Shown: piece by piece, positions 545 to 7,807 of the stretch
Layout of the letters: the number at the start of each line of letters is the position of its first letter
Numbering within the stretch: the first letter of the stretch is position 1
NCBI GenBank assembly: GCA_964388035.1
Contig: CAYLZE010000143.1
Coordinates: forward strand, 1-11,115
Source: an uncultured archaeon
GTDB taxonomy: Archaea; Asgardarchaeota; Lokiarchaeia; Sigyniarchaeales; SOKP01
Length of the DNA stretch: 11,115 nt
Reading direction: 5' to 3'
Program-made: the position numbers and the translations under genes
The notes under the pieces: model-generated
Told to the model about the DNA's origin: nothing
The model's input: the letters and a program-made list of their open reading frames with translations, nothing else
Database searches by the model: none

Positions 545-2122
545 TTATTTAAAATATTTTGTTACGAGTTCTTCAGTTTTATAGAATGGGCTAATATTGC
601 CATTGAATTGCTCCAATTCTTTATTAAAATTCTTTTCAAATGCTTTTGTAAACAATTCAAGTTTTTTAAATAAGATAGGGAGGATTTTCGTGGAGATTAA
701 AGCCACGATTATCTTTTTTCCATATGCAAAGTATATGATGGTGCCTTCCTTATCAATAATCTTGAGGTTTTGGCGTTCCTTGGTAATTTCCGTGATTAAA
801 TCTATAATTCCCTTTAATCCCGAAGTGATTAAATCTTCATTAAGGGGAGGATATTGATAAGTTGGGGAGGTGCTATTAAAATTTTTAGCATAAAGGCAAG
901 TAGAATTTCGATTGATGATATAAAGATCCTTCAATGCTGCTGCCCATTCTGCTTCCTTTGAAGTCAAGATTTCCGATAAGGGCATGATCCAGACTAACAA
1001 TCCAATTAATAAAATTGAATTAATCCCATTTATCAGTTCTGGAATCCAATAGAGTTCTGGATTGATATAATAGTAAAGAGTTAATAAATATTTTAAGACA
1101 ATCCCTGAAATAAATCCTGTTAGGACGGAAATTAAAAAGATGCCCGCGATTCTCCCCCGAAACTTTAATGTATATCTTTCCGTGGAGAGATCACCTGTCA
1201 GGGTGAATAAATTTATAAGGATGATGGGCAAGGCGATTCCCAAAAAAATCTCGGAGTAAAGTCCCTTGAAGATACCAGAAAAGATGATTAAAGTGGATAA
1301 GATTAAAATTCCAAGGGTATAACTCTTTTTCCTCCCTAAGTTATCCAAGCTGATTCCAATGATCAAGAAAAACAAGAGCAAGACAAGAATGAATAATGTG
1401 GGATTAATCAATATCTTCAATTCCACGGGATATGCATTTCCCAAGACAAACCCAAGCACGAGAAAACTTCCCAAATACCCCAAAAGAGGATGAGCAAAAA
1501 TGACTTGACTAAAGGTTTTGGAGCTTGTTAATCGTTCTCTTGTTTCCTCATATTTATAAACTTTAGAAACATATAATAAGATCAAGAAAATGACAGAATT
1601 TATCACTATTATCGCAAGCAAGTTCCGATTCGTGATTAATATCAGAGGATGAGCAATACCCAAGGATAGGAAGAAAGTATATCCAATTAAGCGCCCTCGA
1701 TTAAGAATGGTGGACTCGTGAGTAAGAACGGTAAGTAAGTCAATTAAGTATAATCCAATAAAAAAGATAATGAGGGAATAACCCACCACTTTAAGAAGAA
1801 TCCCAAAATTTATCAATATTAATCCCAAAAGCGTGATAAAAGAGGAGATCAATAATAATTTAATTCTATCTTTTACCATATCTACGATTATTCCGGAAAA
1901 AATGATAGTCAGTAATATGGTAATAATGGAACTTAACCCTAACAGGGATAATATATCAGTGGGAGTGAAATTTAACCCGGTTAGGAAAAGATAATCAATA
2001 ATTAGGGTGCTAAATAAAAAGGATAACGAAAAATAAATGAATCCTCTAGGCGTGATATCCACGTCTCTTATGACTCCTCTAAAAAACAGTTTTTTTGACC
2101 ATTTTAGAAAAGGTTTCTTCAT
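545..2122 (-). CDS. MFS-fold 12-TM membrane protein fused to a C-terminal soluble longin-like domain
   Basis: 525 aa with about 12 hydrophobic segments arranged 6+6. MFS motif-A-like GIIVDMVKDR (TM2-3) and GISLDNLGRK (from aa 256, TM8-9); duplicated RGRLIG/RGRIAG motifs before TM5 and TM11. From about W393 a soluble domain (LYIINRNSTCLYAKNF...EDLITSGLKGIIDLITEIT...LKIIDKEGTIIYFAYGKKIIVALIS...LELFTKAFEKNF) shows a longin-like beta-beta-alpha-beta-beta-beta-alpha-alpha pattern. Confidence 0.8.
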   Translation of the reverse strand: MKKPFLKWSKKLFFRGVIRDVDITPRGFIYFSLSFLFSTLIIDYLFLTGLNFTPTDILSLLGLSSIITILLTIIFSGIIVDMVKDRIKLLLISSFITLLGLILINFGILLKVVGYSLIIFFIGLYLIDLLTVLTHESTILNRGRLIGYTFFLSLGIAHPLILITNRNLLAIIVINSVIFLILLYVSKVYKYEETRERLTSSKTFSQVIFAHPLLGYLGSFLVLGFVLGNAYPVELKILINPTLFILVLLLFFLIIGISLDNLGRKKSYTLGILILSTLIIFSGIFKGLYSEIFLGIALPIILINLFTLTGDLSTERYTLKFRGRIAGIFLISVLTGFISGIVLKYLLTLYYYINPELYWIPELINGINSILLIGLLVWIMPLSEILTSKEAEWAAALKDLYIINRNSTCLYAKNFNSTSPTYQYPPLNEDLITSGLKGIIDLITEITKERQNLKIIDKEGTIIYFAYGKKIIVALISTKILPILFKKLELFTKAFEKNFNKELEQFNGNISPFYKTEELVTKYFK

Positions 2123-2325
2123 AAGGATTATTCAGACCTTAATTTCGCGCGAATTATATAATAAAGTATTTGAACCAAGAAAAAACTTGTTGCTTCTTAC
2201 TAGAAGTTATTTATGGTCAATCATTTAAAAAATTTTAAGTACAATGATTTGTAAAGTAACTTAATTTATTAATCTCGTGGTAAATTTTTCGAAGAATAAT
2301 TATTGGATTGTTAATTATCGTAATA

Positions 2326-3480
2326 ATGGACATTTACATTTACATTTACACTTTAATTCTTACAATGTTTTTTCTCTCATTTGCGGTAATATTATTTTTT
2401 GTTGGGAGAAAAGGTCTAAAAACAGGCAATAGACATGGGGCCTCTTCCACTTTTGCTTGTTCTGTAATGTTCATTCTATTTGCCCTCTATAATGAATGGT
2501 TTGGTTTACTTCCTTATCCACTTAATGGATTCCTGGTCTGGTGGATAGGAGCTGTAGGAATCGTTAATATAATTTTCATTGGGATCATTAAAAGAGAGAT
2601 TAAAATAATTAAAAAGGCAGAACTTGAGAACTCTACCTCCGATAAAAAATTTACATCCAAATTACGTAATTATGTAGCATTCCTTATCAAAGGAAATCCT
2701 TATAAAGATAGTATTCCCGTTAAAATGGAAATTGTTCGAAAGTCTTTTCACGTGTTAGGTTTCTTAATTGTAATTGCTTATTATGGAGCAATAATTATTC
2801 CTCCCTTGACTCTAATATTAAATAATCTTATTATCGAGTTTATAAACAATACAGGATCGTTATATACTTTTATTTGGGGGAATTTAAATGATTATCCTTA
2901 TAAGATTGGAGATCTTCAATCCGTTGTGGGCATGACCTTATTTATTCTTATTGGAGCGTTATCACTTGCAACAATGGTTGATTCTATTCGAAACATCATG
3001 GGACCTCAATATTCAATTTTAAACGTGTTAACTCGAGCGGTCTTGAGGAAAAAAGAATTAAATGCATCTGGTCCTCAAATTCATCTTATCACGGCTGTTA
3101 CTTTCACGTATTTATTATATATTATGGGATTGGTAACTGCAGCAGTAGTTTTTACGGCACTTTCAATATCTTGCATATCTGATGCTCTGGCTGCGGTGGT
3201 AGGAAGAAGATACGGCAAACACCAGATAACATGCAGAAGAGGGGAAGTCAAATCTAAAGAGGGATTTCTTGTAGGTTCGATTAGTGCATATCTCTTAGGT
3301 CTCTTATTCATCGGTCCCATTTATGCCTTGATTGCAGCTATTATTTTTCTTTTAATTGACTATTTCCCGTCGTATATAGCCGACAACATCTTAAATCCTA
3401 TTTTAATTACCGTTGGAGTGACTCTTTTTGCTTTTTTTTCTCATATCCCCATGGGATGGAACTGGTTACTTATTTTATAA
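2326..3480 (+). CDS. CTP-dependent polyprenol/diacylglycerol kinase (Sec59/Dgk1/phytol-kinase family) with extra N-terminal TM region
   Basis: Family motifs RKSFH, LRKKE, SDALAAVVGRRYGKH, KSKEG and DNILNP in a multi-TM protein. ATG at 2326 is preferred over TTG at 2308 (same frame). Confidence 0.85.
   Translation: MDIYIYIYTLILTMFFLSFAVILFFVGRKGLKTGNRHGASSTFACSVMFILFALYNEWFGLLPYPLNGFLVWWIGAVGIVNIIFIGIIKREIKIIKKAELENSTSDKKFTSKLRNYVAFLIKGNPYKDSIPVKMEIVRKSFHVLGFLIVIAYYGAIIIPPLTLILNNLIIEFINNTGSLYTFIWGNLNDYPYKIGDLQSVVGMTLFILIGALSLATMVDSIRNIMGPQYSILNVLTRAVLRKKELNASGPQIHLITAVTFTYLLYIMGLVTAAVVFTALSISCISDALAAVVGRRYGKHQITCRRGEVKSKEGFLVGSISAYLLGLLFIGPIYALIAAIIFLLIDYFPSYIADNILNPILITVGVTLFAFFSHIPMGWNWLLIL
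2330..2350 (+). repeat. Short in-frame tandem repeat (ACATTT)x3.5 encoding DIYIYIY
   Basis: acatttacatttacatttaca at the start of the kinase CDS. Confidence 0.7.
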
Positions 3481-4436: not shown

Positions 4437-5151
4437 AGTTTTGAAATCATTTTTACATTTTCATTAAGTATTATATCATTTTTATAAGAAATTAACTATA
4501 AATGTCTAATTTTGATCAATAAGACATATTCAATTACGATATTGATTTAAAATATCTTAGATACTTAGTCTGTTTCCTATTAGAACAACATTAGTTGTCA
4601 TTTTTCCTAATCAATTTTCCAATTATATTAATGGCATTATAAAGTAAAAGTATTTAGAGAGCATGAAAAAGTGTATCGTTTGGCATCCCCGACAAAATTC
4701 ATAATTCACTTTTTTCTCATTACTTTTCGGAAATAGTTGAAATTTAAACAGGGTTGCATGATTCGCGATATCAAAATAATTGGAAGAATCTTAATGGTGA
4801 ACAAAATAAATTAATCAATCTTTTTAATTGTTTATAATTTCATGGATATTTAACGATGATGGAAAATTAGTCATTTTCTTGTTTTTGAGATATTCATGAC
4901 ACGCAGATAAAAGATTATTAATGATTTATTAAATGGCATGTTAAGTAATTAATACATTCCAAAAATCAGAAAAATTAATCGTTTGATAGGTCTTCCTTCA
5001 AGTAAATTAGATGAGTATTAAAAGATACTGGATCAAAAATATTTAAAAGGAATTATCATATTACAGGGCACGTCTAGTATTTTATCTTGATGATGAGGGG
5101 TGACTTTTTACGCGCATTTTAACAAAAAAAATACATGAAGTGAACGTGTAA

Positions 5152-5419
5152 GTCTCATCCTTGCTTGAAAACCTCTTTTTTATTAAAATTTAAAGAATTG
5201 CTTAATTTTTATTAAAATCTTGATTAGGACTTCTTTTTTATGAAAAAAAAAATTGAGGTAATTTAATTTCTTTTTGCACTTTTAGGGTGTAAAAAGAGTA
5301 TTAATCCGTTAATAAGATCTTCTTTTTTTAATAAAAAAGGTTTTTTGTGTGTAAAAAGATCAATTACTGTTAATAATTGTGATTTTCTACTATTTTTTTT
5401 TACACCTTTCATGTGAGAC
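5152..5419. other. 268-bp AT-rich structured element (candidate MITE or ncRNA)
   Basis: Ends GTCTCA (5152-5157) and TGAGAC (5414-5419) are inverted, and each is flanked by TAA (5149-5151, 5420-5422). Nested internal stems: 5168-5188/5326-5344, 5196-5209/5249-5263, 5269-5279/5287-5297, 5299-5314 and 5356-5386. Confidence 0.45.
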
Positions 5420-5618
5420 TAAAGATCGTTTAAGATAATTTTCCTCACGTGGATTTAACTAAAATAGCTAATTATTTAATATTTATATAAGGCATGACCT
5501 TACCTTGATATTATATCCCTTTCTTTTATTGGATCTCTAATTCAACCAAAAAGAATTGAGAGTTTCATTAAGCATATTCAATATAGAACGAAATAATATG
5601 AGAGAATGTTATCCAATG

Positions 5619-6188
5619 TTACCAATTTGAACGGCCCCATACCTTCTTTTTTTCTTGTTGAAGCAAACCCGAGGCATTCATTACCAAATGAGAAATTTCT
5701 GTAAAGATTAATTCCACGTTTTCACCCGTCTTAGAAGAACATTCAAAATAACCATCAAGATCGTGGGATTTGACTATAGATAAAGCAGAATCTTTTGTTA
5801 TGGATCTTCTTTCTTCTAAATCTAATTTTCCTCCAACCATTATGATAGGAATTCGCGTAGCGGCCCCAACGGTCCTTTTTCTCACAATTTCTAACCAATT
5901 ATTAAAATTCTTAATACTTGAGTACCTGGTGATATCATACATGAAAATGCCCGCATTAGCACCTATCATGTAGCTTGGCAATAGAAATCGAAACCGCTCC
6001 TCTCCCGCGAAGTCCCAAATTTGTAAAGATACTCTTTTATGATTTACCTCTAATTTTTTAATATGAAAATCAACTCCAATTGTCATCTGCGAGTCCTCTT
6101 TAAACAAACCGGTTAAAAAGCGATTCAGTAACGTGGTCTTGCCAACTCCACCATCACCGAAAATGACTATTTTAAACATGTAGTCCAA
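5619..6188 (-). CDS. Rab-like small GTPase (Ras superfamily, Asgard type)
   Basis: G1 GDGGVGKT, G2/RabF1 TIGVDF, RabF2 SLQIW, G3 DFAG, RabF3 RFRFL, RabF4 SYMIGA, RabF5 MYDIT, G4 GKLD, G5 CSSK. The start is uncertain (TTG 6188 or ATG 6179). Confidence 0.95.
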   Translation of the reverse strand: MDYMFKIVIFGDGGVGKTTLLNRFLTGLFKEDSQMTIGVDFHIKKLEVNHKRVSLQIWDFAGEERFRFLLPSYMIGANAGIFMYDITRYSSIKNFNNWLEIVRKRTVGAATRIPIIMVGGKLDLEERRSITKDSALSIVKSHDLDGYFECSSKTGENVELIFTEISHLVMNASGLLQQEKKKVWGRSNW

Positions 6189-6520: not shown

Positions 6521-7807
6521 ATGGAAGCCACGAAGGAAAATTCAACAGTAACCAAGGAATTTCCGATTAAGGATAACGATGGGAACGTGGTGCTAACCAT
6601 TAAACTCATTGAGGGCAAGACAAGGGTCTTTAATGACGATAAGCCCCTAATGCTGTGCATTACGGTCCCCGTAGAAATCCCCATGGAAAATGTAGGGGAA
6701 TTCAGCGAGATCGAGTCCATCAATGACGTTCTGGATGCATATGGATACGACGATGAGGAGGCATTTCCAAGGGGGGACTTAAAAATCACGCCCGAGCTTA
6801 ACTTTTTTGTCACGTGTTCCAATCTTCAGACCTGGGTGGAGAATGATTATGACACGCACTTGATTGATTATCGTCTGGTATTTCCGCTATTGATTAGCTT
6901 GGCGGAGAGCGGGAATGCCCATGCAGAAGTACGGTTAAAAGAGGAGATTGCCCGGAGATATCATTCGGGGTATGAGGGTGTGAGGGAATTCTTGGATGGG
7001 ACGGGAATTGCACAAATGCTAACCCCCGAAGAGCATTATGCTCCCTTGCCCCTTGAAATCCAGGTGCCGATGGTTCAAATACGGACACGAATTGGGGGTA
7101 AGGAAATCATTAAGAACGGAAAAGTCCTCAAATTAAGCACGTATAGGGATAAATATTCGGATTATTATAAGAAATGGCTCTCGCTTGAGGATATTCGCAT
7201 TATTCAGGAAGCAGTCTCGAAATTGCAAACATTAGAGGAATTAAAATTAACTCTTTGGGATGAGCAATGGGACGGAATTGCTACACTCCAAGGTGATTTT
7301 CCCCATTTACATTCACTAGAAATTTCCATTCCACATTTGGGAAATTTATTTGACGACCCCGCCCGCTTCCCTTCATTAAAGAAATTACTTGTGGGTTCTA
7401 GAGACGAGACACTTACCGAATCCATAGCAAATCTCAAGCATCTCACGGATTTAGAATTGTACGGAATAGGAGCGCTCCCCGAATCCTTCGGCAAGTTGGA
7501 GAAACTGGAGTGCTTGGAAATCACCCGATGCCCAATTGAACACCTTCCCGAATCCTTCGGCAACCTCAAGAACTTGAAGGAGCTTAGAATCACGGAATGC
7601 AAGTTACAAGAATTGCCTGAATCATTCTCCAATTTAAAAAAATTGAAATCTTTAACTATATATAAAAATCAATTAGATCGATTTCCTTTAGAAAGATTAC
7701 CTTTAAAATCATTAGAACATATAAATCTAAGTGGTAATAAAATACCCTATCTTTCAAAAGAAATTGAAAATTTTCATAAAATTAGAAGATTCTATTCAAC
7801 CATCTAA
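6521..7807 (+). CDS. Leucine-rich repeat protein with Lokiarchaeia-type N-terminal domain
   Basis: C-terminal 23-aa LRRs (LPESFGKLEKLECLEI, LPESFGNLKNLKELRI, LPESFSNLKKLKSLTI, LEHINLSGNKI). The N-terminal ITPELNFFVTCSNLQTWVENDYDT...FPLL...L...G block resembles, from memory, the N-terminal domain of an expanded Loki LRR family. Confidence 0.9.
   Translation: MEATKENSTVTKEFPIKDNDGNVVLTIKLIEGKTRVFNDDKPLMLCITVPVEIPMENVGEFSEIESINDVLDAYGYDDEEAFPRGDLKITPELNFFVTCSNLQTWVENDYDTHLIDYRLVFPLLISLAESGNAHAEVRLKEEIARRYHSGYEGVREFLDGTGIAQMLTPEEHYAPLPLEIQVPMVQIRTRIGGKEIIKNGKVLKLSTYRDKYSDYYKKWLSLEDIRIIQEAVSKLQTLEELKLTLWDEQWDGIATLQGDFPHLHSLEISIPHLGNLFDDPARFPSLKKLLVGSRDETLTESIANLKHLTDLELYGIGALPESFGKLEKLECLEITRCPIEHLPESFGNLKNLKELRITECKLQELPESFSNLKKLKSLTIYKNQLDRFPLERLPLKSLEHINLSGNKIPYLSKEIENFHKIRRFYSTI
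7478..7632 (+). repeat. Nucleotide-level 69-bp-period repeat of LRR units
   Basis: CCCGAATCCTTCGGCAA is exact at 7478-7494 and 7547-7563; a diverged third copy CCTGAATCATTCTCCAA lies at 7616-7632. Confidence 0.9.

Follow-up and report, generated by a model that had tools for sequence, protein, structure and literature searches.

A predicted longin-fold tail on an MFS-fold membrane protein of Lokiarchaeia: an inherited fusion and a candidate docking module

Carriers that bear a signalling extension include yeast Snf3/Rgt2 and E. coli UhpC, which are proteins of the major facilitator superfamily (MFS), and SLC38A9, which has the APC fold. Another kind of appendage is the YAM domain of E. coli YajR, presumably a dimerisation or gating device; we take it to have a ferredoxin-like fold of ~65 residues and not a longin fold, so that it and the domain described below would be appendages without homology. 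Longin and roadblock domains that have been solved in Asgard archaea and in eukaryotes form dimers and GTPase platforms (PMC10933270; PDB titles). Together with small GTPases they lie at the heart of membrane identity and nutrient signalling in eukaryotes; how they first came to be bound to membranes is a question of eukaryogenesis. Reviews put the number of longin domains in Lokiarchaeum at 41, and the only fusions they mention are those to GTPases. Here we describe a gene, MFS-longin, that joins an MFS-fold membrane body to a longin-like tail. It lies on a stretch of 11,115 nucleotides (the window: contig CAYLZE010000143.1 of assembly GCA_964388035.1, forward strand) from an uncultured archaeon of the Lokiarchaeia (Asgardarchaeota; Sigyniarchaeales). 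In the papers searched we found no description of a fusion of a longin to an MFS protein or to any other membrane protein; an unnamed asCOG for such a fusion may exist.

The MFS-longin gene is an uninterrupted open reading frame (ORF) of 525 codons plus a stop (Table 1). As proposed in an earlier inspection of the letters made without database searches (the sequence-only reading), a soluble domain follows in frame after 12 transmembrane (TM) segments; it begins at about residues 387-393 (nucleotides 946-964) and continues to the stop. A protein search returned 60 cluster representatives at E values of 1e-226 to 1e-63. Nearly all are 515-547 amino acids (aa) long and match at 97-100% query coverage and 43-70% identity, and those with names all come from metagenome-assembled genomes (MAGs) of Promethearchaeota/Lokiarchaeota. 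When one genome per species was scanned, the full-length fusion gene was found at 58 loci. Full-length matches run across the window's family, and four more families of the phylum also have proteins that combine an MFS body with the tail. The sequence-only reading had named an assembly artefact, absent from relatives, as one thing that would overturn it. Because full-length homologues recur at 58 species loci and in 60 protein clusters, an assembly artefact or an erroneous gene fusion is ruled out, and the MFS-longin fusion is a real, inherited architecture.

The membrane body is predicted to have the MFS fold. A full-length AlphaFold2 (AF2) model, with 51 homologues as input (predicted local distance difference test score, pLDDT, 82; predicted TM-score, pTM, 0.71), contains 12 long TM helices followed by a β-β-α-β-β-β-α-α arrangement. 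When the body was compared with the PDB by Foldseek, the top 50 matches were all MFS transporters, led by VGLUT2, VMAT1/2, NorA, MelB, YajR, OxlT and URAT1. The probability was 1.00 for more than 40 MFS structures, at TM-scores of 0.6-0.69 normalised to the target. ESM features of aa 1-386 place the body nearest to archaeal MFS_1 clusters (0.97; 26 of 30 neighbours). The internal duplication claimed from the letters is clear in the fold and weak in sequence, the two halves aligning in hhalign at E 4.5e-4. This alignment pairs TM2-motif A-TM3-TM4-loop with TM8-motif A'-TM9-TM10-loop and sets HESTILNRGR against DLSTERYTLKFRGR, the two blocks being pseudo-symmetric mates. Pfam MFS_1 (PF07690, clan CL0015) scores 25 bits (E 1.1e-5), below its gathering threshold of 33.4 bits; a search of NCBIfam with the protein gave no match, and the family profile matched no solved transporter among the PDB sequences. 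We therefore assign the body to the MFS by fold and superfamily and place it outside the Pfam MFS_1 family by score; its sequence is highly divergent. MFS proteins with the tail from other families, 521-554 aa long, reach 32-57.5 bits against MFS_1.

Conservation was compared among 56 orthologues, to which the residue counts in this and the next paragraph refer, as the mean frequency of the top residue by region. It is 0.29-0.45 in the outside loops, 0.47-0.69 in the TM helices, 0.71-1.0 in the cytoplasmic loops and 0.64 in the tail, which has ~25 invariant positions. Conservation is greatest on the cytoplasmic face and in the tail, and the invariant residues lie nearly all at the cytoplasmic face. 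They include H135, E136, N141, R142, G143 and R144 of HESTILNRGR, D311 and R322 of the DLSTERYTLKFRGR block (where R316 is found in 55 of 56), and Y189, Y191, E193 and R197. Both copies of motif A, which has a G-x3-D-x2-G-R-[KR]-like pattern, stand exactly where the sequence-only reading had put them. The loop 8-9 copy, GISLDNLGRK, is canonical, with G256, D260, G263, R264 and K265 invariant; the loop 2-3 copy, GIIVDMVKDR, is divergent but conserved. In the latter, G77 is present in 55 of 56 orthologues, D81 in all 56 and K84 in 93%, and position 86 is R in 44, K in 12 and never another residue.

The sequence-only reading had called this first motif degenerate and had judged this compatible with a sensor rather than a pure transporter. 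The conservation of G77, D81, K84 and R/K86 contradicts the view that it is degenerate: the motif is evidently under selection and not decaying, and because it is conserved in the family, it is no argument for a sensor. Among the 56 orthologues the membrane core holds no invariant charged residue. Position 43 is E, D or N, position 175 is mostly E (N in the query) and position 293 mostly H (F in the query). A core with no invariant charge is as compatible with a sensor as with the carriage of an uncharged or hydrophobic solute, and decides for neither.

The tail was modelled alone by AF2 (aa 387-525; pLDDT 80, pTM 0.76), and the model shows a short helix followed by β-β-α-β-β-β-α-α-α by DSSP. 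An exhaustive structural comparison with 48,161 PDB representatives (VIA-align) gave longins as the best matches, with 117-132 residues aligned, including the C-terminal helices, at Z 10.5-12.6. These are Fuzzy (7q3d, Z 12.6), Bet5 (3cue_C, 12.3), synbindin (2zmv, 11.7), TRAPPC1 (7b6d, 11.5), VAMP7 (4afi, 11.3), Mon1-Ccz1 (9rs6 and 5ldd, 10.9-11.3) and a Lokiarchaeal longin dimer (8yqg, 10.6); SNARE longins and the longins of adaptor sigma, mu and zeta subunits match at Z 10-11. Roadblock structures, in contrast, reach Z 8-10.3 over 92-107 residues only and leave the C-terminal helices out, and Foldseek concurs. Given the helices after β5 and the longer matches, the tail is modelled as a longin and not a roadblock fold, as the sequence-only reading had supposed. 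A Roadblock fold, whose order is α-β-β-α-β-β-β with an N-terminal helix on the sheet, is ruled out by the helix order and the short structural matches; Pfam Robl_LC7 gave no match to the tail even with E values up to 10 admitted, and an iterated Roadblock profile failed to recover it.

The sequence signals of the tail point to longins of the TRAPP/Fuzzy type, all of them sub-threshold. Pfam Sybindin (PF04099) matches at E 5.6e-4 (20.4 bits, cut-off 25); the family profile finds Trs23 (E 0.027) and TRAPPC1 (E 0.09) in the PDB, and a free-standing paralogue matches Fuz_longin_1 (PF19036) at E 4e-5 (24.2 bits, cut-off 26.1). With both termini inside, as in standard MFS topology, the tail would be cytoplasmic. 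A short linker joins TM12 to the tail and carries the conserved residues E384, L386, K389, E390 and W393.

The same tail is found on other membrane proteins. Searched alone against 1.84 billion representative proteins, it has 436 relatives at E up to 1e-3. Among the best 146 of these, 41 are 450-650 aa long with at least 9 TM segments and 46 are 250-450 aa long with 4-8; sampled long relatives match MFS_1. In other families the tail is matched at E 1e-21 to 1e-27, and the MFS body is missed by the profile made from the N-terminal part of the window's family. Large members begin with a hydrophobic segment consistent with a signal peptide, followed by an ectodomain, one TM segment and, within ~8-30 residues, the tail. 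Their ectodomains match MG2, an EMC7 β-sandwich or a ribophorin II-like domain, and several of these single-pass proteins also carry a winged helix-turn-helix domain (PF24409) at the very C-terminus. Receptor-like metagenomic representatives of 750-2640 aa are P0075, P0096, P0103, P0118, P0131, P0145, P0183 and P0202.

Within the source genome (5.47 Mb) the tail profile finds ~26 ORFs; the MFS body, unlike the tail, is single-copy there. At least 10 of the ~26 encode proteins of 360-430 aa in which 5-7 TM segments are followed by a C-terminal tail. A tandem group of four is found on contig C50 (C50:9831-14512), and others lie at C1:73110-74222, C149:5698-6825, C2:68051-69142, C101:18-1109, C6:85676-86959 and C54:12486-13574. 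The membrane bodies of these 5-7-TM proteins gave no Pfam match, and an ESM search with one 6-7-TM body stayed below 0.9, with a weak HisKA_7TM signal. Throughout the tail family the tail is juxtamembrane, usually at the very C-terminus, and its signature includes a tryptophan in the juxtamembrane helix (W393) and a penultimate phenylalanine (F524, 97% conserved). By these sequence comparisons it is a general module and belongs to a large Asgard family of juxtamembrane longins. The sequence-only reading took it as established that Asgard membrane proteins often carry a longin at the C-terminus; this is true of these data, and we did not find it stated in the papers searched.

We consider the best explanation, with a probability of about 0.45, to be an MFS-fold protein that carries a general longin tail for docking or pairing. 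The last TM helix of a divergent polytopic MFS body runs through a short conserved juxtamembrane helix into the cytoplasmic longin. The body keeps the cytoplasmic gating apparatus, namely both copies of motif A and the charged blocks after TM4 and TM10; because this apparatus is kept, the body probably still switches conformation, and most likely it carries a solute, possibly an uncharged or hydrophobic one. The data establish the architecture, the folds, the conservation pattern and the family distribution, whereas pairing, GTPase binding and any coupling of transporter state to the tail are what we infer. As other longin and roadblock domains do, the tail would form a pair with one more domain of either kind, belonging to another copy of the protein or to a soluble protein, and the pair would form a membrane platform for a cytoplasmic partner. 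The likeliest such partner would be a small GTPase, since the longin fold docks one in every characterised platform.

Table 1. Features of the MFS-longin gene and two neighbouring genes in the window
Feature	Position	Strand	Basis
Whole gene, MFS body and longin tail	545..2122	-	ORF list and translation, 60 homologues, 58 species loci
MFS-fold membrane domain, aa 1-386, 12 TM helices	965..2122	-	AF2 model, Foldseek, Pfam, ESM features
Motif A of N-half, GIIVDMVKDR, aa 77-86, loop TM2-3	1865..1894	-	Translation, conservation
HESTILNRGR, cytoplasmic end of TM4 and loop 4-5	1691..1720	-	Translation, 56 orthologues
Canonical motif A of C-half, GISLDNLGRK, aa 256-265, loop TM8-9	1328..1357	-	Translation
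DLSTERYTLKFRGR, cytoplasmic end of TM10 and start of TM11	1151..1192	-	Translation, conservation
Juxtamembrane helix aa 388-396 (E390, W393) and predicted longin-fold tail aa 397-525	548..964	-	Separate AF2 model
Roadblock/LC7 gene, 179 bp downstream, same strand, 3' end cut by contig end	3..365	-	Pfam Robl_LC7 E 6.6e-18
Ras/Rab-like small GTPase gene, 3.5 kb upstream (context only)	5619..6188	-	Pfam Ras E 2.6e-45

The genes around MFS-longin include two whose products could suggest a partner. The Roadblock gene, separated from MFS-longin by an AT-rich spacer, is a possible one; the Ras-like gene is parted from MFS-longin by two genes on the + strand and a spacer of 1.18 kb. Since these two opposite-strand genes intervene, an operon of Roadblock, MFS-longin and the Rab-like GTPase gene is ruled out. 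An operon link to Roadblock is likewise ruled out by the AT-rich spacer and by its opposite strand in 5 of 14 relatives. A tree of the loci splits the window's clade A from a clade B. The clade A block consists of genes for an M20 peptidase, a Ras-like GTPase, a HAD phosphatase, a CdsA-like membrane protein, MFS-longin, Roadblock, an Rpb7/S1-domain protein and DUF359, with the CdsA-like gene transcribed divergently from MFS-longin. Roadblock is adjacent in 14 clade A loci, on the same strand in 9 of them, and is gone from three in which synteny is broken (L015, L059 and L066). The Roadblock orthologue is unusually conserved, with 73-79% identity across 13 genera, and 79 of the 80 family genomes carry it, including some in which the fusion query found nothing. 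This distribution excludes phyletic coupling of the two genes and marks Roadblock as a core gene rather than a partner reserved for MFS-longin.

Clade B comprises 33 loci, in 15 of which a second MFS-longin copy stands in tandem. Two opposite-strand genes of the low-molecular-weight (LMW) phosphotyrosine phosphatase/ArsC family bracket them, and no Roadblock or GTPase gene was found within 5 kb at any of the 33. The bracketing Pfam LMWPc genes (E 2e-27) are present throughout these loci (L029-L065, 33 species; e.g. L035:4347-7140), and in the source genome two LMWPc genes adjoin (C4:64394-65419) with no MFS-longin between them. One locus with the typical LMWPc-MFS-longin-LMWPc order, L063 (DATKTW010000003.1), is filed under a Nanopelagicaceae (actinobacterial) MAG and is probably mis-binned. 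Five others, labelled Thor-, Hermod- or Odinarchaeota (L037, L042, L056, L057 and L064), nest inside the Loki-type clade B, and because of this nesting such labels are no basis for claiming a wide distribution.

Some further observations concern the window and other tail genes. The CdsA-like gene (2308-3480, +) encodes 390 aa with a weak CTP_transf_1 match (E 0.003), and its position is kept in ~20 loci. The 1.18-kb spacer (4437-5618) is an AT-rich stretch with a GC fraction of ~0.25 between the convergent HAD and Ras-like genes; it holds no ORF longer than 49 aa, no tRNA and no Rfam match, and is not repeated in the genome. It is not conserved in the closest relative (L009), which has a gap of similar size. 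A gene for a 428-aa leucine-rich-repeat protein (6521-7807, +; GC 0.44 against ~0.33 around it), divergent from the Ras-like gene, is absent from the syntenic block at 58 of 58 related loci and may be a recent insertion. A scan of the whole window for Rfam families, tRNAs and small ORFs found nothing. Suggestive pairs are scattered elsewhere in the source genome: a 6-7-TM tail gene is followed after 73 bp by a small-GTPase gene (C1:72483-74222, -), and a gene for a 258-aa soluble tail protein is followed after 4 bp by a Roadblock gene (C50:23804-24952, -); the number of such tail-GTPase or tail-Roadblock pairs in this genome is close to chance. A 302-aa protein (C13:3049-3957, -) has an N-terminal longin, weakly matched by the tail profile at E 1.4e-4, fused to a small-GTPase domain, an architecture already described for Asgard Rag/Arf-like proteins.

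Several results weigh against the docking tail as set out above. With no invariant charge in its core, transport by the body is not assured, and it could serve instead as a sensor or simply as an anchor. The linker is modelled at pLDDT below 50 at aa 387-391 in the full-length AF2 model, the MFS_1 and Sybindin matches of the protein both fall below the Pfam cut-offs, and no fusion to a GTPase occurs among the best 146 relatives of the tail. A small GTPase gene lies within 5 kb at 9 of the 58 loci (16%), against ~18% expected for an interval of 11.6 kb, an expectation drawn from the 94 small-GTPase ORFs that iterated profiles find in the source genome (along with 32 Roadblock ORFs). GTPase genes thus lie near the orthologues no more often than by chance. 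Roadblock is a neighbour in clade A and its positional orthologues alone, where the gene is ~3 kb away, and its orientation flips. The gene neighbourhood fails to support the proposal of the sequence-only reading that the carrier is wired to a GTPase. Such a true transceptor, analogous to SLC38A9-Rag-Ragulator, would pass solute binding or the state of the body through the linker to the tail and so alter the nucleotide state or the recruitment of a GTPase. The short, conserved linker, the invariant gating motifs next to the tail, a core that fits a sensor as well as an uncharged-solute carrier, and the receptor-like single-pass proteins with the same tail are all consistent with it, as are the Roadblock and Ras-like genes found within 6.2 kb in the window and in 9 related loci. 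Proximity of a GTPase gene, however, is confined to one syntenic block with housekeeping genes (HAD phosphatase, M20 peptidase, Rpb7/S1-domain gene, DUF359), the window genes are not one operon, the clade B paralogues have neither gene nearby, and the distributions of Roadblock and the fusion do not coincide. That unrelated membrane bodies carry this same tail opposes a solute-specific circuit and makes a substrate-specific transceptor less economical than a generic docking tail; we consider it improbable.

The silence of the gene context on GTPases would be expected if the protein were a plain secondary transporter, whose tail only holds protomers together or regulates the transporter itself, in the manner of the YAM domain. 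The complete set of MFS gating motifs is conserved, YajR (3wdo) is a precedent that ranks among the top Foldseek matches and aligns over 525 columns, longin and roadblock domains habitually form dimers, as the Loki longin dimer does, and the tandem paralogues of clade B could pair through their tails. Nevertheless, single-pass ectodomain proteins and 5-7-TM proteins with the same tail suggest a shared partner and not a gating device peculiar to transporters, and across families conservation is higher in the tail than in the body, an unusual pattern for a domain that serves only to dimerise. The receptor-like members favour signalling or docking over mere gating of a transporter; we take the plain transporter seriously and still think it rather unlikely. 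That many unrelated membrane proteins of one genome share the tail could also mean that it is a sorting or localisation tag, read by cytoplasmic machinery (cytoskeletal, ESCRT or adaptor-like) that places or removes them. AP-3 and Hrb recognise the longin domain of VAMP7 in much this way; the constant juxtamembrane and usually C-terminal placement, the conserved F524 and the structural matches to SNARE and adaptor longins agree with such a tag. Against it, no adaptor, ESCRT or cytoskeletal gene is conserved beside MFS-longin, and Loki archaea in culture have shown no internal membrane compartments (PMC10933270). A sorting tag is the least credible of these explanations. In a bolder form of the docking explanation, the Asgard longin tail would be an output module shared by transporters, 5-7-TM proteins and single-pass ectodomain receptors, through which the state of a membrane protein directly controls a small GTPase; we hold this stronger claim to be improbable as well.

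Taken together, these results place a predicted longin, welded to several kinds of membrane protein, in the closest archaeal relatives of eukaryotes. Should the tail turn out to bind a GTPase, prokaryotes would have their first known device for coupling a membrane directly to a GTPase. If the tail is an output module of the kind just described, it would be a prokaryotic forerunner of the membrane-anchored platforms of guanine nucleotide exchange factors (GEFs) and GTPase-activating proteins in eukaryotes and of transceptor signalling of the SLC38A9-Rag kind. If the partner is not a GTPase, Asgard longins would have a membrane-protein role unrelated to eukaryotic trafficking, which would temper their reading as a eukaryotic signature. 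At ~140 aa, the tail alone is a clonable start for asking what Asgard longins bind.

Among known systems, SLC38A9-Rag-Ragulator, Snf3/Rgt2 and UhpC resemble MFS-longin in concept only, as a carrier fold with a signalling extension; their signalling parts have no homology to the tail, and the gene context here lends the likeness no support. YajR resembles it in layout, with an MFS body followed by a small α/β cytoplasmic domain. With MFS transporters at large, MFS-longin shares 12 TM helices in two pseudo-symmetric halves, a motif A in each of loops 2-3 and 8-9, and charged gating blocks that follow TM4 and TM10; the nearest solved folds are VGLUT2 (8sbe), VMAT1/2, NorA and MelB, from which it differs in being very divergent and in carrying a longin tail of 139 aa. 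Roadblock/LC7 proteins (MglB, LAMTOR2/3 and the Asgard structures 7yh1, 9jue and 7f8m) share the superfamily core with the tail, which differs in its helices after β5. The closest likeness of fold is to Bet5/TRAPPC1 and Trs23/TRAPPC4-synbindin of TRAPP (3cue, 2j3t, 2zmv, 7b6d), Mon1-Ccz1 (5ldd, 9rs6) and Fuzzy/CPLANE (7q3d), in which the order of strands and helices is the same over 120-130 residues. Those longins are soluble subunits of multi-protein GEF complexes and form longin heterodimers, whereas the longin of MFS-longin is covalently tied to a membrane protein.

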